This document shows positions 3,064-64,000 of a DNA stretch of 64,000 bases, in pieces (positions within the stretch are counted from its first letter, which is position 1; the number at the start of each line of letters is the position of its first letter). The DNA is taken from sequence record PP175015.1. One strand, written 5' to 3'. The position numbers and the translations under genes are program-made. Source of the DNA: Escherichia phage UE-S5a. The notes under the pieces are model-generated. The model did not search any database and had not been told where the DNA came from. It saw only the letters and a list, made by a program, of their open reading frames with translations.

Positions 3064-3753
3064 ATGAGTGAACTAACTAAGCAGCAGATTGTTAATGCCC
3101 TACCTGCTAACTTCAAGAACAGTGTAACCCAGGAGTTGGTGGACACGATCAACAACATTACCCAAGACCAACTGGTTGCTGAGTCCTTCCGTGAAAACTT
3201 TATCTCCTACTCTGGTGTAATGAAGGAAGGTAAGTTTAAGACACAGGATTACATGAATGCAGTTCAGTATGTGACTTACAAACATATGGGCTATTCAAAT
3301 AAGGAAGCCTACTTCAAAACATTCCCTAACCGACAGGCAGAACTTGTAGCACGAGGAACCAGTGAGAAAGATATCAGTGCTTATGTATCTGCTTACCATA
3401 GGGGTAAATTGGTTAACCTCATCATGGAACAAAGTTTGGTTCCAGTGTGGATTGTGAACCAGGACAATTATCAAAAGGCTATCAACGTTCAGGTTGAACT
3501 AATGACCACAGCAGCAAGTGAGAAAGTAAGATGTGATGCAGCTAACTCTATCCTTACTCACTTGGCTAAACCGAAAGACCAGGTAACGAACATCAATCTG
3601 GACTTGAGAGAGAACTCCGGATTAACTGACCTCAAGGCAACACTTGCTGCATTGGCTGAACAGCAGATTAATGCAATCAATAGTGGAGTACCTACTAAAG
3701 AGGTTGCTGGTTCTAAACTAGTACGTGCAGATGAGGACATTACAGATGTCTGA
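3064..3753 (+). CDS. putative terminase small subunit
   Basis: 229-aa ORF immediately upstream of and overlapping the large terminase; position-based call. Confidence 0.4.
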   Translation: MSELTKQQIVNALPANFKNSVTQELVDTINNITQDQLVAESFRENFISYSGVMKEGKFKTQDYMNAVQYVTYKHMGYSNKEAYFKTFPNRQAELVARGTSEKDISAYVSAYHRGKLVNLIMEQSLVPVWIVNQDNYQKAINVQVELMTTAASEKVRCDAANSILTHLAKPKDQVTNINLDLRENSGLTDLKATLAALAEQQINAINSGVPTKEVAGSKLVRADEDITDV

Positions 3754-5335
3754 GTTAATTAAACAGGAACTGGATGAATGGCTGGACCAGGTGGACTACT
3801 CCCACCTTAATTCATCTAACTATGTTCCTAGTCAGTTTGCTCTTACCTTTGCCAACTTTATTAAGTTGGTTAATGGCAAAGAAGGTGAATCCAACAAAAC
3901 ACCTCCAGTTCACTTGAAGATGTTGGATAAGATGATTAGCCCGAACCAGTATGTAGTTAACCTGTGTTTCCGTGGTGCAGGTAAAACTGCTGTGTTCATG
4001 GAGTACTTTACTTTGTTCCTGGCAGTGTTTGGTCATTTACCAAGCCTGGGTAAGGTAGAAGGAATGATTTACGTATCTGACTCAATGGATAACGGTGCTA
4101 AGTCTGCACGTAAGAACATTGAGTTCCGTTACAAGAATAGTGAGTTCCTTCAGCAATGGATACCTGAGGCTACATTTACAGATAACCTTCTGGAGTTCCG
4201 TAATGTAGAAGGACATCGACTTGGTGTTAAGTTGTTTGGTGCTAAGACAGGTCTTCGTGGTACGAAGATATATGGTAAACGTCCAACACTCTGTGTACTG
4301 GATGACTTGATTAGTGATGGTGATGCTAACTCCAAGACAAGCATGGAAGCTATTAAGGATACCGTCTATAAAGGTGTGAACCATGCTCTTGACCCAACCC
4401 GTCGTAAAGTAATTTTCAATGGTACTCCCTTTAATAAGGAAGACATTATCATTGAAGCAGTTGAGTCTGGTGCATGGGATGTCAACGTATGGCCTGTATG
4501 CGAGAAGTTCCCCTGTAGCAGGGAAGAATTTCAGGGTGCATGGGATGACCGTTTCTCTTATGACTATATCAAAGCCCAATACGATATGGCAGTTAAGACG
4601 GGTAAGCTGGCAGGCTTCTATCAGGAACTTATGCTTCGTATTAGTTCTGAAGATGAGAGACTGGTTCAGGATAGTGAAATTAGGTGGTATAGCAGACAAC
4701 AACTATTAAGGATGAAGTCCTGCTACAACTATTACATTACAACTGACTTTGCTACTTCGGAGAAACAGACCAGTGACTACAGTGTCATTTCAGTTTGGGC
4801 TTATAGTTCTAATGGAGATTGGTTCTGGGTTGATGGTGTGGCTAATCGTCAGCTTATGGATAAAAACTTTGATGACTTATTCCGTCTGGTTCAGGAATAC
4901 CAACCACAAAATGTTGGGGTCGAAACCACAGGTCAACAAGGTGGATTCATCTCACTCCTTCAAAAAGAAATGATTAACCGTAATGTCTTCTTTAACTTTG
5001 CATCCTCTGAAGGTGGTAAGCCAGGCATACGTCCTGTAACCTCTAAGCTGTCACGCTTTAACCTGGTAGTTCCATGGTTCAAAGCTGGTAAGATGTACTT
5101 CCCGGAAGAGTTGAGAGATTCAACTATTATGGGTTTGTTCATGGGCCAGATTAAATTAGCTACCATTAATGGAATCAAAGGTAAGGATGACTGTATTGAT
5201 ACTATCTCTATGCTGGGTTATCTCAATCCCTGGAAACCACAGGCAGGTATGACTATGGTGGATAACAAGGGTGACCCGATGTGGGACGATGAAGAAGAAG
5301 ATAGTGTTAACCCCCTACGTTCATATATTGTGTGA
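3746..5335 (+). CDS. terminase large subunit
   Basis: ORF 3725..5335; Walker A-like RGAGKT, ATPase plus nuclease architecture of about 530 aa; likely start ATG 3746 (MSELIKQ) with GAGGA RBS. Confidence 0.8.
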   Translation: MSELIKQELDEWLDQVDYSHLNSSNYVPSQFALTFANFIKLVNGKEGESNKTPPVHLKMLDKMISPNQYVVNLCFRGAGKTAVFMEYFTLFLAVFGHLPSLGKVEGMIYVSDSMDNGAKSARKNIEFRYKNSEFLQQWIPEATFTDNLLEFRNVEGHRLGVKLFGAKTGLRGTKIYGKRPTLCVLDDLISDGDANSKTSMEAIKDTVYKGVNHALDPTRRKVIFNGTPFNKEDIIIEAVESGAWDVNVWPVCEKFPCSREEFQGAWDDRFSYDYIKAQYDMAVKTGKLAGFYQELMLRISSEDERLVQDSEIRWYSRQQLLRMKSCYNYYITTDFATSEKQTSDYSVISVWAYSSNGDWFWVDGVANRQLMDKNFDDLFRLVQEYQPQNVGVETTGQQGGFISLLQKEMINRNVFFNFASSEGGKPGIRPVTSKLSRFNLVVPWFKAGKMYFPEELRDSTIMGLFMGQIKLATINGIKGKDDCIDTISMLGYLNPWKPQAGMTMVDNKGDPMWDDEEEDSVNPLRSYIV

Positions 5336-5341
5336 GGAACC

Positions 5342-6052
5342 ATGCAAAAATTATCGGAAGTATACCGTGGCTTGGCACTAAGTACCTTGAAGGGTACTGG
5401 TGCAGTCACGGATGACAGATTGGGTATTGAGCCTGATAGTAAGCCTGAGATACTGGCAGCTATTAATGAAGGATTGGTTCGACTGCATAGTCGTTTCCCT
5501 CTCAGAACTAATAGTTGTATTGTGGAGATGAAAGAAGGGCGTACCGATTATCCTCTTCAATCCAGATATGCTTACTCCAGATTTACTAAGCCCACTCTTG
5601 AGGTTCAGTATCCATACATCATGGATGGGTTCATGAAACCTTTCCAGGATGATGTTATTAAAATCTTAAATGTATTTGATAACTCAGGGAACCGACGTAG
5701 ACTGAACGATGATTCGGACCCTCGTGCTATCTTCACTCCACGGCCTGATACTATTCAGTGTATGCGTCCTCGACACTTTGAGGCACTTAACGTAATGTAT
5801 CAAGCCAAGCACCCAGTGCTTACGGGTGATGAAGAACAGGAAGTTGATTTAGCTGATACGCTAATGACGGCACTTCATAACTGGGTGGGTTATCGTTACC
5901 ACACCGGTTTGAATACTCCGGAAGCTAACGCTAAAGCAGCAGAGCATCTGCAAACATATGAAAGCATCTGTGGTGAGGTTGTTGATTACGACCTGGCTAA
6001 TGGAAGTATTTCAATTACCGAAACTAAATTTGAACAACGAGGATGGCGATGA
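5342..6052 (+). CDS. hypothetical virion-associated protein
   Basis: 236-aa ORF inside structural operon between terminase and tailspike. Confidence 0.4.
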   Translation: MQKLSEVYRGLALSTLKGTGAVTDDRLGIEPDSKPEILAAINEGLVRLHSRFPLRTNSCIVEMKEGRTDYPLQSRYAYSRFTKPTLEVQYPYIMDGFMKPFQDDVIKILNVFDNSGNRRRLNDDSDPRAIFTPRPDTIQCMRPRHFEALNVMYQAKHPVLTGDEEQEVDLADTLMTALHNWVGYRYHTGLNTPEANAKAAEHLQTYESICGEVVDYDLANGSISITETKFEQRGWR

Positions 6053-59092: not shown

Positions 59093-59535
59093 TAGAATGA
59101 CCTTAGATAGTTGGTGATACCACTACGGTTTTCTGTAATTTTCTTAACCTGAACATATACCAGCTTAAACTCACTACGGGGTAGTTCTTGTAATACTGCT
59201 ACACCTTCAGTAAGGGCCACAGAACACGCTACAGCGGTTTCTTTTTTAAAGGAGTATAAGTCTTCATACATGAGGGCTTCATACTCCCTGCGGAGCATAC
59301 AGAGAGCATCTCTTGCCTTATCACTTACTTCTTGTGAACCAGCAGACATAGCTAAGCTGTATATGATAAAGATTTGTTCAAAAACAAAGTCCAGTAATCT
59401 ATCAGGATTGTTAGTCCCCATGAATAATTTTGATGTGTAGGAACGGGCTTTACGGTTGAGTTCATACTCATCCTCTATGCCTTTATTGTAAAGAACAGGA
59501 TTTCGTTCCCTTTTCCGTAGGAATGGGATACGCAT
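59092..59535 (-). CDS. hypothetical protein
   Basis: 147-aa ORF translationally coupled to neighbours. Confidence 0.4.
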   Translation of the reverse strand: MRIPFLRKRERNPVLYNKGIEDEYELNRKARSYTSKLFMGTNNPDRLLDFVFEQIFIIYSLAMSAGSQEVSDKARDALCMLRREYEALMYEDLYSFKKETAVACSVALTEGVAVLQELPRSEFKLVYVQVKKITENRSGITNYLRSF

Positions 59536-59924
59536 TAGTATTTACTACCTCTTCTATACCAAGGGTAATGATGGGTAGTGCTCTTGCCTTTGAACACATC
59601 CTTAGTACGAGGATTCTTTTGTATTTGAGCCAGGTAAAGATGCATTTCGTCGTAACACGGACTAAGCCAGAACTTATCTATGATTCGGTCTACCTTAGAT
59701 TTCAGATGAGGTTCTGGTGGAATATATGAAGAAGTATTAAAAGGTTTTCTAGTAGTCCAATTCTTCATAATAATATTTTGCATTACTGCATAAACATCAG
59801 GACCAATTCCATTCTCTTCTACTTGATCATGGATAGTTTTACCCAAAGTAAGCATTGCAGTTTGTTCCAGCTTACTTAAGTCCAGTCCTTGCAGGATAGA
59901 CTTACCATTTTGTCTGCTTGACAT
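59535..59924 (-). CDS. hypothetical protein
   Basis: ORF 59535..60026 trimmed to ATG 59924 because a terminator hairpin occupies 59937-59966. Confidence 0.4.
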   Translation of the reverse strand: MSSRQNGKSILQGLDLSKLEQTAMLTLGKTIHDQVEENGIGPDVYAVMQNIIMKNWTTRKPFNTSSYIPPEPHLKSKVDRIIDKFWLSPCYDEMHLYLAQIQKNPRTKDVFKGKSTTHHYPWYRRGSKY

Positions 59925-59936
59925 AAGAGTACCTGT

Positions 59937-59966
59937 AAATAAAAAAGCCCACGGGTTAGGTGGGCT
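59937..59966 (-). terminator. rho-independent terminator (minus strand)
   Basis: AGCCCAC-gggttag-GTGGGCT stem followed on minus strand by TTTTTTATTT. Confidence 0.6.
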
Positions 59967-60041
59967 TGGGTTAGGAGATGGATAAGCAATGAGCTGGAAG
60001 TAACTTCCGCAAGCACCACTATGCAATGATGCTTAGGTTAG

Positions 60042-60357: not shown

Positions 60358-60567
60358 TTACTCAGCATCTTTGCTTGCAGGAGCAAGAGCTTTCTTCAGG
60401 TAATTGCGTACTGAACGATAGGTTTCTTTAGTATCCATAGCACTATCATTTACGAAAGTGATACGTGCACAATCAGACAGCGGAATCTGCTCCACTGCAA
60501 TTACATTTGCAGCATTAATGGTTACACGTACATCTGAGGTTGCATGAGTTACTTGAAATACTGACAT
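60358..60567 (-). CDS. hypothetical small protein
   Basis: 69-aa ORF. Confidence 0.35.
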   Translation of the reverse strand: MSVFQVTHATSDVRVTINAANVIAVEQIPLSDCARITFVNDSAMDTKETYRSVRNYLKKALAPASKDAE

Positions 60568-60597
60568 GTTGTTTCCTTAATTAAGCCGGATAGCCTT

Positions 60598-61104
60598 TTA
60601 TTTTGAAGGTCTAGCAGCTACTGGTTTGTTTTCCTGATTCTGATACTTACCATTGTAATTAGCAGGTTCTTGAACCAGATGAAATAATACTTGAGCTATC
60701 CCAGCACCAGCCGGGATATGCAATTTCTTACGACCGTGATAGACCAGTTCGAGGGTAAGATACCCTTTCCATCCTGGTTCTATTACGGTATTGAACACTG
60801 ATAATGCACGTCTTGCCCATGTAGACTTATCGTGAACGATTGCTACACAGGACGGGGACATGTTGAACTTCTCAATTGCTGAGGCCAAGGCGAACTTACC
60901 GAGATGGCGTGATACTTGATTTCCATCAACGACTTTCACCATTGGAATCAGCCCAAATAAGCGATAGAAGGTAATATCTTGTTTGATACGAATATCATAA
61001 CCAGCTTCACCTAATCCATAGCTTACACCATGCTCTGATACCTTATGGTCTGGGACATCCAGCAACTGAGATGAACGGTATAGAGAATTACCATTAACAA
61101 CCAT
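60598..61104 (-). CDS. dCTP deaminase-like protein (dUTPase superfamily)
   Basis: 168 aa; AGYDIR and EPGWKGYLTLEL motifs typical of dCTP deaminase/dUTPase fold. Confidence 0.55.
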   Translation of the reverse strand: MVVNGNSLYRSSQLLDVPDHKVSEHGVSYGLGEAGYDIRIKQDITFYRLFGLIPMVKVVDGNQVSRHLGKFALASAIEKFNMSPSCVAIVHDKSTWARRALSVFNTVIEPGWKGYLTLELVYHGRKKLHIPAGAGIAQVLFHLVQEPANYNGKYQNQENKPVAARPSK

Positions 61105-62279
61105 TATTTCATTCCTTTAGGGATATGAACTACCTCCCCAAAAGGTACGGTAGCATTGGGATTATTCAGAACACACCAGATGATAGGAATATCAAATGGT
61201 AATTCTTCCATTGGACGAACATACATATCGGAGAATATGATTGCAGCGGTTGGTTTATTCTTAATAATCCACTCGCGTACTGGTTCCAGGTTTGTACCAC
61301 CACGACCGGTAATCTTAATCTCTTCAAAAGTATCTTCTTCAGTGATGTCTATCTCTTCTTGGATAATATCGTCGAAGGTAATTAAGGACATCTTCTTAGG
61401 ATTGAACTGGCTCTTAACGTAGGCAACCTCTGAGTTAAAACGCAGAGAGTCAGCACTACTAATAGAACCAGATACATCCTCAAAGTAGGCTAAGTGTCGT
61501 AAGCGTCCTTCATCATCTTCCATGGAAGGTAGATAGATGTCAGTAAAACGACGGTTAGGTCTGGCCCACGTATAATGAGTATCGTCAATGTCGGTAAAGA
61601 AGTTCATGAGGACTTCCTGCCATGGAACCACTGGTTTAAGGAATTGGGTAATAACCTCTTCCATACGACCAGCACCCTTACCGGGCATCTGTCCACCAGC
61701 CATTTTCTGGCTCTGCATTGCTCGTACTACGTTGTTGACGACAGCACCCTGGGACTGCCCCGAAGTGGGGGATTTCATGTCGCCAGCAAGACCTGCTCCA
61801 GCACCCCCTGACGGCTTCTGCCTTTTCTGAGGGTTCTTCATCAGGTCATCGTAGATGTCTTCTTCGACCCATCCTTTATATTGAGGGTCTTTGCAAATAC
61901 CTTTATCAATGCCAGTGAACTTATAACCATCTTCTTCTAACTGAAGGTTAATGAAGTGGTCACACGCCTGGTTCCAGATTTCTGGGTCACGGCTTCCACG
62001 ACGGATGCCATGCAGATATGCCACATGCCAAAGTTCATGCATTAACACTGTTTCTCTGGCATCTGGACACATCCAGATAAAGAAATCTGGATTGAAGTGA
62101 AGTTCTATCCCATCAGTACATGCAGTGGGACAATTCTCACGTTTCCATGAGAACTTAAGACTACATAGTAATGAACCAAAGAACGCAGCACTGCGTCCGA
62201 GAAATGCGTTGGCCTGTATTCTATCGTATTCCCTCATTAACTGTTCATCAGTGAGGTTATGTGGTGGTATGTTATTCAT
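61104..62279 (-). CDS. VWA-domain protein with N-terminal HExxH metallopeptidase-like domain (DUF2201-type partner of MoxR ATPases)
   Basis: 391 aa; MHELWHVAYLH HExxH motif; C-terminal MIDAS-like DVSGS. Confidence 0.5.
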   Translation of the reverse strand: MNNIPPHNLTDEQLMREYDRIQANAFLGRSAAFFGSLLCSLKFSWKRENCPTACTDGIELHFNPDFFIWMCPDARETVLMHELWHVAYLHGIRRGSRDPEIWNQACDHFINLQLEEDGYKFTGIDKGICKDPQYKGWVEEDIYDDLMKNPQKRQKPSGGAGAGLAGDMKSPTSGQSQGAVVNNVVRAMQSQKMAGGQMPGKGAGRMEEVITQFLKPVVPWQEVLMNFFTDIDDTHYTWARPNRRFTDIYLPSMEDDEGRLRHLAYFEDVSGSISSADSLRFNSEVAYVKSQFNPKKMSLITFDDIIQEEIDITEEDTFEEIKITGRGGTNLEPVREWIIKNKPTAAIIFSDMYVRPMEELPFDIPIIWCVLNNPNATVPFGEVVHIPKGMK

Positions 62280-62755
62280 TAAGATGCTCCATGATTTATA
62301 TGGTAACCCAATAATTTTTCTGCTTCCTTTCTGGCTGTAATGGCCTCTTGTTTACTGTTAAACTTTCCTAAGTAAATTTGTTTACCATTATCATTTATAT
62401 GGGCAGCCCAGATTTTATCTCGGGTGTGCCAGTAAACTCCTGTCACACCTGATGTATTTGTAATTCTCTTGGTTTGATTTTTGCAATTAATCGAGTTTGT
62501 TACTAAACGGAAATTGCTTGGGTAATTATTTAATCTATTATGGTCAATATGGTCTACCTGCATACCGTCAGGAATTGGTCCAATCTCCATTTCATAAATT
62601 ATGCGGTGAACTAAATGCATTTTCTTGTTACATTTAACACGCAAATACCCACTGTTATCCAAACAACCGGCAATGGCACCTGCTTTTACGCAGCCCCTGC
62701 TTACTTTCCAGTAGAGGGAACCATTGCTATAAACAAATAGTTCATGCCAATTCAT
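62279..62755 (-). CDS. HNH homing endonuclease with AP2 DNA-binding domain
   Basis: 158 aa; HRIIYE...VDHIDHNRLNN HNH core plus GVTGVYWHTRDKIWAAHINDNGKQIYLGKFNSKQEAITAR AP2-like domain; inserted between the MoxR and VWA genes. Confidence 0.75.
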   Translation of the reverse strand: MNWHELFVYSNGSLYWKVSRGCVKAGAIAGCLDNSGYLRVKCNKKMHLVHRIIYEMEIGPIPDGMQVDHIDHNRLNNYPSNFRLVTNSINCKNQTKRITNTSGVTGVYWHTRDKIWAAHINDNGKQIYLGKFNSKQEAITARKEAEKLLGYHINHGAS

Positions 62756-62759
62756 TATT

Positions 62760-63812
62760 TTATCCGTGAATGTAACGAGAGATATTAGCAGCAGCCTTAC
62801 GCCATTCAGGTGTAGCCTGAAGTTCTGGCAATGCTCTGCCTACTGTACGGAAGTACAGAATCTTATGGGTGAACGTTTTAAAGCGTTCAATGTACTGAAG
62901 AACATCAGAGAAGTTTTCTTCAGTAGTTTTGTTAGCCAGGTGGTTAACAGTAGCCCAACACAGGTTGTTATCTTCCGGTAGTGCACAGCCCAGAGGGTCT
63001 TTGACTACTTTCTCAATCGTAATCATACGATTGTATACCTGAGTGAATTGAACAAACTCTGTAGCCTTACCAGCAGTAACATGTCCTGCGTAGTAGATAG
63101 AATCTTCATCTGGCAGAGCACCTTCAGGACGGTTCTTGAGGTCTTTGTTAACAAAGTCCCAGGTGCGTGGGCAACAGAACGTTTTGTTCTTATGGGCTGG
63201 GTCGAAGTCATGCAGATAACCTGGGTTAGCATGTAAGAATGCAACCAGACGTTCATCCCATTCTTGTGGAATCATTACATCTTCAACAAAGATGTCGAAG
63301 TTAAGTTCCATTTCGAAGTGAACCACGCGAGACTGCATTGCAGTGCCCAGTGGGTTAACAATGGCACGGTCAGTAGCTTTGTTACCAGCACATATAATCA
63401 TCACATTAGGATGGAGTTTTTTCTGACCAGTCATACGGTCCAGAATCAGTTTGTATGCAGCAGCTACTACTTCTTTTCTGGCTGAGTTGAACTCATCAAG
63501 GAACAGGAGCCAACCATTATATCCTTCCGGTATCTCATCCCCCTCAATAGGGAATAAGTCAGCGAATGGGATAAACTCTGCACGGTCACCATTACGGAAT
63601 GGTAGACCAGACAAATCCTCTGGGGCAGAAGTAGACAGACGATGGTCTATCAGTTTCATACCAAATTCTTCTGCAACAGAGCGAATAATTGCAGATTTAC
63701 CCATTCCCGGTGATGAAGTCAGGAACGGTACGTTACCTGCTTGCAGGGCACGGATAATAAAGTTACGGGCCTGACGTGTATTACATATGGTCAGTGAGTC
63801 AATGCTCGCCAT
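62760..63812 (-). CDS. MoxR-like AAA+ ATPase
   Basis: 350 aa; Walker A SSPGMGKS, Walker B LLFLDEFN; AGGAGAG RBS. Confidence 0.7.
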   Translation of the reverse strand: MASIDSLTICNTRQARNFIIRALQAGNVPFLTSSPGMGKSAIIRSVAEEFGMKLIDHRLSTSAPEDLSGLPFRNGDRAEFIPFADLFPIEGDEIPEGYNGWLLFLDEFNSARKEVVAAAYKLILDRMTGQKKLHPNVMIICAGNKATDRAIVNPLGTAMQSRVVHFEMELNFDIFVEDVMIPQEWDERLVAFLHANPGYLHDFDPAHKNKTFCCPRTWDFVNKDLKNRPEGALPDEDSIYYAGHVTAGKATEFVQFTQVYNRMITIEKVVKDPLGCALPEDNNLCWATVNHLANKTTEENFSDVLQYIERFKTFTHKILYFRTVGRALPELQATPEWRKAAANISRYIHG

Positions 63813-63846
63813 TTACTTACTCTCCTAAAGTTAATGGAATTACTAA

Positions 63847-64000
63847 TTAAGATTTAATACATGGGTAGGCTGTATCAATTGCCATCAGAACCATGTCTGA
63901 TGGTACTTTTACTGCATTAACCTTTCTGTCATACAGAATAATAGTGGCTACTTTGTCAAAGACATTTCCTAACTTCAAACTATCTGGTACGCAGTTCTTA
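63847..64000 (-). CDS. hypothetical protein (C-terminal part only; gene starts beyond window end)
   Basis: Minus-strand frame open from window end to TAA at 63849-63847. Confidence 0.3.
   Translation of the reverse strand, partial: KNCVPDSLKLGNVFDKVATIILYDRKVNAVKVPSDMVLMAIDTAYPCIKS

Follow-up and report, generated by a model that had tools for sequence, protein, structure and literature searches.

Intronless homing in the T-even phages is reportedly driven by SegF at genes 56/69, SegG at gene 32 and MobE at nrdB. Proteins that combine an HNH nuclease with an AP2 domain form another described class of homing endonucleases, found in phages, cyanobacteria and protists, and, in phage genomes, regions of genetic exchange are known to have nuclease genes at their borders (PMC10448857). 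In the G7C-like phages, homing-endonuclease-like genes are involved in module swaps, and g16 carries a spliced intron (bioRxiv 10.1101/542787). Here we describe an HNH-AP2 gene in a 64,000-nucleotide (nt) stretch of DNA from Escherichia phage UE-S5a (PP175015.1), called the window below, which lies between a gp24-like AAA+ ATPase gene and a gp25-like gene coding for a ‘VWA-like’ protein (the VWA gene). The region is 100% identical to Escherichia phage UE-M3 (PP301342.1), an N4-like Gamaleyavirus of the Schitoviridae, and the locus is named UE-M3 in all comparisons. Sequence comparison makes it likely that this gene codes for a free-standing (‘intronless’) homing endonuclease of the HNH_3 + AP2 type and was placed in series in the gp24-gp25 operon of a G7C-like coliphage.

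Occupied and empty gp24/gp25 junctions

The junction was surveyed with a probe of 261 nt spanning the uninterrupted ATPase/VWA boundary of phage PGN829.1. The probe is contiguous in ~31 distinct Gamaleyavirus genomes, as well as in the Moovirus Moo19 and in phage Jgk1, and is split by an insertion of ~450-490 bp in nine genomes (UE-M3, UE-S5b, UE-M6, G7C, Mimir124, PD38, Bp4, Uz-1 and Moonfish). In the empty-site genomes, the ATPase stop codon is followed by a spacer of 4 or 7 nt and by the gp25 start, ATGAAC; in the carriers, the HNH gene begins with ATGAAY behind a spacer of these same two types (4 or 7 nt). Relative to PGN829.1, the clean insertion in UE-M3 measures 476 bp, counted from the common ATGAAY (480 vs 4 nt between ATPase stop and VWA start). 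An earlier note on this DNA had left room for a junction occupied in every relative; the empty site is instead defined by alignment with the insertion-free genomes.

Carriers do not form a natural group. Fourteen genomes, six carriers and eight non-carriers, were aligned, and neighbour-joining trees were built for the ATPase gene on one side and for gp25 from nt 76 to its end plus the dCTP deaminase gene on the other. In the trees of both flanks, carriers are polyphyletic and interleaved with non-carriers: UE-M3 pairs with the HNH-less PGN829.1, to which it is ~99% identical in the flanks, Bp4 and PD38 fall among HNH-less phages (beside IME11 in the ATPase tree), and Mimir124 pairs with NAN33P5 in the ATPase tree. 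The distribution of carriers thus does not follow the trees of the flanking genes, which points to spread by horizontal transfer. The inserted proteins belong to three sub-lineages, UE-M3/G7C (94% protein identity to UE-M3), Mimir124 (81.5%) and PD38/Bp4/Moonfish (57-60%), in the last of which two copies are decayed. The Moonfish copy has a frameshift in its AP2 part, in an insertion ~30 nt shorter than that of its closest homologue, PD38 (451 vs 486 nt, ATPase stop to VWA start), and the Bp4 copy is frameshifted by 1 nt, possibly through a sequencing error. The Moonfish and Bp4 copies are degenerate, a sign of an invasion-decay cycle.

In the window, four genes run head to tail on the minus strand: the ATPase gene, the HNH-AP2 open reading frame (ORF), the gp25-like gene and the dCTP deaminase gene. 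The features used in the analysis are as follows (aa, amino acids).

62760..63812, minus strand: AAA+ ATPase gene, gp24-like (N4 gp24 homolog), 350 aa (ORF list; Pfam AAA; phrog_1297 ‘ATPase’, 1.3e-133)
62756..62759, minus strand: spacer of 4 nt (AATA on the gene strand) from ATPase stop to HNH start (sequence, alignment)
62279..62755, minus strand: candidate free-standing HNH-AP2 homing endonuclease gene, 158 aa (Pfam; phrog_99, 2.4e-63; annotation UEM3_058)
62486..62614, minus strand: HNH_3 nuclease core, aa 48-90 (Pfam range; phmmer alignment to PDB 1u3e)
62342..62452, minus strand: probable AP2-type DNA-binding domain, aa 102-138 (Pfam AP2)
62287..62290, minus strand: GGAG, Shine-Dalgarno-like, in the last HNH codons, 7 nt 5' of the VWA ATG (sequence)
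62217..62273, minus strand: recoded block, VWA codons 3-21 (nt 7-63), holding all 13 fixed carrier/non-carrier differences
62208..62755, minus strand: cassette, HNH ORF plus VWA nt 6-72 (UE-M3 vs the near-identical, HNH-less PGN829.1)
61104..62279, minus strand: gp25-like DUF2201_N + DUF2201 ‘VWA-like’ gene (N4 gp25 homolog), 391 aa (Pfam, annotation)
60598..61104, minus strand: dCTP deaminase gene, fourth of the row

The start and stop codons abut closely, with the HNH ATG 4 nt 3' of the ATPase TAA and the HNH TAA sharing one base with the VWA ATG (TAATG). The three-gene arrangement and the abutting of both neighbours, as they had been described in the earlier note, are both borne out by the coordinates.

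The 158-aa protein matches the Pfam family HNH_3 with 65.8 bits (E 2.6e-18) and AP2 with 31.2 bits (E 2.8e-7), the latter just under the gathering score of 33.3, in line with the two-domain composition previously proposed for it. The AP2 match of the Mimir124 ortholog, at 35.9 bits, is over the gathering score, and the AP2 region has weak PDB matches to plant WRI1 and to Toxoplasma AP2 factors. Among solved structures, I-HmuI is the best match to the nuclease core (PDB 1u3e; E 1.3e-5, phmmer); D68, H69 and N90 align with D74, H75 and N96 of that enzyme, with an identical 21-residue spacing. These I-HmuI residues are reportedly metal ligands and the general base. With a GC content of 36.9%, against 44.5-44.8% in the flanking genes, the HNH gene is compositionally foreign. 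Homologs were found by tblastn in 2287 phage records, often several per genome, and the same method returned no paralog in the whole 64 kb beyond the gene itself; NCBIfam gave no match for the ATPase, the HNH protein or the VWA protein. The ORF is not a chance one. The window is 100% identical to the UE-M3 record, where the gene is annotated ‘HNH homing endonuclease’.

A recoded block at the 5' end of gp25

The insertion is adjoined by a short stretch of gp25 in which carriers and non-carriers differ systematically. Between UE-M3 and PGN829.1, 27 of the 75 positions in VWA nt 1-75 are different, compared with 20/1607 in the rest of the right flank and 10/1091 in the ATPase gene (Fisher p = 1e-26 for the local divergence). 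The differences cover gp25 nt 6-72, the next one lying at nt 589, and towards the ATPase gene the first ones are met at -15 and -51. Over the ~2,640 gap-free flank columns of the 14 genomes, 13 differences are fixed between carriers and non-carriers when the gp25 alignment is anchored on the ATG; all 13 fall in VWA nt 7-63, and none was found in the ATPase gene. The raw alignment gives 12 fixed differences, two of which are alignment artefacts, and in that alignment 2000 random 6/8 partitions of the genomes yielded 0.03 fixed sites on average and 3 at most, none reaching 12.

The recoding leaves the protein almost intact. In codons 11-23 (DEQLMREYDRIQA), 12 nucleotide differences cause zero amino-acid change; they include CGT>AGG, CGT>AGA and CTC>TTA, each requiring two steps and leading to codons rare in the phage, and the block also contains rare ATA codons. 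The non-carrier form is kept almost unchanged in Moo19, Jgk1 and IMG/VR relatives of 76-85% protein identity, so that the non-carrier form is ancestral and the carrier form derived. Among 50,697 phage records, the carrier haplotype is confined to those that bear the HNH gene. From this pattern, the block is probably the recognition site of the nuclease, recoded for self-immunity and protecting the carrier's own genome. For the fuller proposal, that the 57-bp block is a selected immunity determinant that maps the recognition site, that gene and block constitute a two-part mobile cassette, and that HNH lineages of 58-94% identity have kept the same target, we consider the chances about even.

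The two parts of the cassette differ in history and have different nearest relatives: the UE-M3 block (VWA nt 1-75) is closest to that of Moonfish (94%) and to that of Mimir124, and the UE-M3 HNH gene is closest to that of G7C. This suggests that recombination has taken place between HNH sub-lineages inside the cassette.

We infer nuclease activity, where the enzyme cuts and whether it makes a nick or a double-strand break, a role of the block in immunity, and translational coupling; the proposed order of events is as follows. A carrier and a non-carrier phage would infect one cell, where the enzyme, binding DNA via its AP2 module and N-terminal region, would nick or cut the non-carrier genome in the first ~65 nt of the gp25 gene. 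Repair of the break by recombination, with the carrier genome as template, would copy in the 476-bp HNH insertion plus the adjoining recoded 5' end of gp25. The recoded block, nearly neutral for the gp25 protein, would make the carrier copy uncleavable, and nuclease gene and immunity site would travel as one cassette. An HNH gene parted from its immune block would attack its own genome, and selection may for that reason keep the two linked despite freely recombining surroundings. Expression of the operon could be preserved in the process: the insertion would take over the original gp25 start context (spacer + ATGAAY) and give gp25 a GGAG and the TAATG stop/start overlap. A CATGGRG motif is conserved at the position of the GGAG in 6/6 aligned HNH-bearing genomes, and, from its location in the last HNH codons, the GGAG may be a new ribosome-binding site for gp25 supplied by the inserted gene. 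The homing-endonuclease invasion put forward in the earlier note thus finds support in the empty sites, the polyphyletic carriers, the recoded block and the degenerate copies, all of which are consistent with it.

Several points weigh against this account. The AP2 score of the window protein is ~2 bits below the Pfam gathering score, and the single-sequence AlphaFold2 model of the 158-aa protein (with three strands and a helix at residues 106-154) has a mean predicted local distance difference test score (pLDDT) of 39 and is unusable. A literature search found no cleavage, nicking or homing assay for the protein or a close ortholog. The 14-genome sample holds ~three to four independent carrier lineages. 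Three HNH sub-lineages, at 94%, 81.5% and 58% identity to UE-M3, have one immunity haplotype, so that target specificity must have stayed constant throughout their divergence. Finally, the block could be unselected and have come along with the gene from the original donor, its perfect linkage to the gene reflecting hitch-hiking.

The last point leads to the strongest alternative, that the block has no role in immunity but is a piece of gp25 from a divergent donor or a compensation for altered translation, the real target being in another place, such as one spanning the insertion junction. Homing is normally accompanied by co-conversion of donor sequence from the flanks, and immunity could already follow from the insertion, which by itself splits the ATPase-stop/VWA-start junction. 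However, among the 50,697 phage records a carrier-like gp25 5' end exists in no phage outside the HNH carriers, and relatives of 76% protein identity differ by ~10% in the block, whereas the carrier form differs by 36% and yet keeps the peptide of codons 11-23. Such nucleotide divergence with a fully kept peptide is unlike a distant donor and makes donor hitch-hiking less likely. As for translation, the GC content of the block is lower than that of the ancestral form (40% vs 45%), which might favour initiation, but a gp25 start placed behind the HNH 3' end has a predicted accessibility of 0.58 with either the recoded or the ancestral block (a weak test), and the block uses the rare codons AGG, AGA and ATA. 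We regard this alternative as unlikely.

It is more doubtful still that the HNH ORF is an inactive or immobile relic, its patchiness arising from ordinary recombination among co-infecting Gamaleyaviruses with occasional deletion. Degenerate copies do exist, and G7C-like phages recombine very frequently, with module swaps at some 22 loci (bioRxiv 10.1101/542787). Against this, the ORF is found with catalytic D/H/N intact in four diverged lineages. Deletion would leave recoded gp25 ends behind after loss of the HNH gene, and none was seen in ~33 empty-site genomes or in the 50,697 phage records; free recombination should also have split the 13 sites, which sit within 60 nt beside thoroughly reshuffled flanks.

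A domesticated protein, serving as an AP2 DNA-binding regulator or as a nuclease against host or competitor DNA and not as a selfish element, is most improbable: AP2-domain phage proteins can reportedly be DNA-binding silencers (bioRxiv 10.64898/2026.02.23.707548), and homing nucleases also exclude competitor markers and can benefit their carrier, but this gene is dispensable, as ~three quarters of otherwise near-identical phages lack it and some have a decayed copy, its nuclease residues are intact, and the adjoining recoded site points to a target in the phage's own relatives.

Two other kinds of mobile element were considered and rejected. An intron-encoded endonuclease is at odds with an ORF that lies between two complete genes, and Rfam gave no intron match in 60500..64000 at E <= 1, returning nothing there beyond a chance microRNA match (E 0.34). 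A transposon or insertion sequence is at odds with the boundaries, which have no terminal inverted repeats and no conserved target duplication, and Pfam detected no transposase domain. An 8-bp repeat, TAATGAAT, is present at both ends of the insertion in UE-M3 but is reduced to ATGAA in G7C and Mimir124; not being conserved in these two phages, it is start-codon context shared by the two ends and not a target-site duplication. A search for a promoter or terminator belonging to the cassette gave 5 sigma-70-like sites, vs 8.7 in shuffled sequences, and none at the cassette boundaries, N4-type promoters being outside the scope of the tool.

Neighbouring genes and further insertions

The pairing of the ATPase gene with the VWA gene, which the earlier note had assumed, is kept across relatives: in 18 IMG/VR loci at 45-97% protein identity the VWA gene directly follows the ATPase gene, two of these loci having small extra ORFs between the pair. 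The description of the ATPase as ‘MoxR-type’ is supported more loosely. The protein passes the Pfam cut-off for AAA (PF00004, 28.7 bits), but AAA_5 stays below its own (17.5 bits vs 22) and AAA_3 gave no Pfam match; the best solved relative is the midasin AAA module (E 9.6e-5). The VWA protein matches DUF2201_N, a putative metallopeptidase family (191 bits, 3.3e-56), and DUF2201, which is VWA-like (119 bits, 1.7e-34), and is labelled ‘VWA-like domain-containing protein’ in the UE-M3 GenBank record. Its gene is, however, called ‘HNH endonuclease’ in PHROG phrog_1314 and in many GenBank/RefSeq records, those of PGN829.1, Mimir124, PBM-3 and Moo19 among them, and Pfam found no HNH domain in its product. 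The label seems to be a misannotation that has spread from record to record, perhaps with the adjoining HNH gene as its source.

Other junctions of this kind contain unrelated small ORFs. The N4-type phage VEc25 has one ORF of 59 aa (locus L017, 1393-1572), not similar to the HNH protein, and two distant Schitoviridae junctions hold three ORFs of 50-82 aa (L032, 1880-2480) and one of 82 aa (L029, 2199-2447), again with no similarity to the window HNH protein. The presence of other small ORFs at the ATPase/VWA junction implies a general insertion hot spot, and not a homing site alone.

The ATPase gene is itself a site of insertion in sister phages. In these, insertions of 860-890 bp, each with an HNH ORF, occupy three sites in gp24: after aa ~67 (PW8, pSb-1), inside the Walker B motif at LLF|LDEF (U1G and NAN33P5, whose insertions are 95% identical), and after aa ~215 (NAN33P5). 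In their own loci, the insertions span 4415-5296 (L004), 4025-4898 (L008), 3599-4460 and 4787-5674 (L014) and ~774-1641 (L026). The corresponding window positions are ~63612, 63497/63498 and ~63168, and the window ATPase gene is uninterrupted at all three; lacking the intron-like insertions, it would be a potential homing target. The ORFs in the U1G and PW8 insertions have the Pfam composition NUMOD4+HNH_3+AP2, and two of the gp24 insertions show sub-threshold Rfam matches to group I introns (35.6 and 25.6 bits vs a gathering score of 50).

Several relatives carry the annotation Tai4 / Rap1a for the gene 5' of the ATPase gene (63847..64000, running past the window end). The name denotes a protein like the immunity proteins to type VI secretion amidases, which is unexpected for a lytic phage. 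On the other side, the gp28-like ORF at 59535..60026 has 163 aa and a TTG start (492 nt, as annotated in UE-M3) but measures 360-390 nt in relatives (PGN829.1, Bp4, IME11 and others), and the gap between the gp28-like and Imm-like genes differs in length among relatives, a further variable spot near the locus.

Significance and comparison with known homing systems

For basic principles the locus matters little, as intronless homing and free-standing homing endonucleases of the HNH type are textbook phage biology. Its value is practical. UE-M3 and PGN829.1, ~99% identical around a 548-bp cassette, are a natural pair for studying homing and for mapping the recognition site of an HNH-AP2 enzyme, and a footprint of fixed synonymous differences offers a computational way to locate a homing site without biochemistry. 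The analysis also exposes an annotation error, the VWA/DUF2201 gene being widely mislabelled ‘HNH endonuclease’ via PHROG 1314. As Gamaleyaviruses are in development for phage therapy, it helps in the design of cocktails to know which segments are driven from one co-infecting phage to another. If the immunity reading of the block is true, the gp24-gp25 operon, with three intron-like HNH-AP2 sites in the ATPase gene of sister phages, would be a natural hot spot for several invaders, and free-standing and intron-borne homing, as well as the evolution of immunity, could be compared in near-isogenic phages such as UE-M3 and PGN829.1.

The nearest described counterpart is G7C gp24.1, which is the same gene at the same junction (94% protein identity) and is annotated ‘putative HNH homing endonuclease, similar to EndZ of phage TLS’; like the GenBank label ‘HNH homing endonuclease’ of UEM3_058 in UE-M3, this annotation was made by similarity alone. 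A literature search returned no description of the gp24/gp25 junction polymorphism, of carrier polyphyly or of the recoded gp25 block. The gp24 insertions of U1G, NAN33P5, PW8 and pSb-1 and the g16 intron occur in the same phage group or operon and involve the same HNH_3+AP2 nuclease type, but they lie inside coding sequence, carry an additional NUMOD4 and encode distant proteins (that of pSb-1 is ~35% identical to the window protein).

I-HmuI of Bacillus phage SPO1 (PDB 1U3E) resembles the window protein in its nuclease core and in the matching D/H/N residues. It is a strand-specific nickase encoded in a group I intron and has other C-terminal DNA-binding modules, whereas the window gene is free-standing, has no intron RNA around it and codes for a probable AP2 domain.

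The HNH-AP2 class (Magnani et al. 2004, cited in PMC10448857; ICP1-like IPA-HNH) has an N-terminal HNH and a C-terminal AP2 domain, as the window protein probably does. The ICP1 IPA-HNH genes are also variably present, prone to frameshifts and located beside conserved genes at the boundaries of exchange; their HNH is too divergent for Pfam HNH_3, which the window protein matches strongly (PMC10448857 for ICP1).

A parallel in genetic behaviour is given by the free-standing endonucleases of T4. There, too, the gene lies between conserved genes and is missing in close relatives. As proposed for UE-M3, the carrier allele is altered at the target, the allele without the endonuclease gene is expected to be cut in the neighbouring gene, and spread is accompanied by co-conversion of adjacent markers. 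The enzymes are different: Seg proteins are GIY-YIG and Mob proteins HNH nucleases, with no AP2 and with cutting reportedly shown, whereas the UE-M3 enzyme is known from sequence. The proposed immunity block of UE-M3 is unusually compact, and its differences in codons 11-23 are entirely synonymous. Set beside these systems, the gene is in all likelihood an ordinary, already annotated free-standing homing endonuclease, to which the comparison adds a probable, testable immunity footprint.

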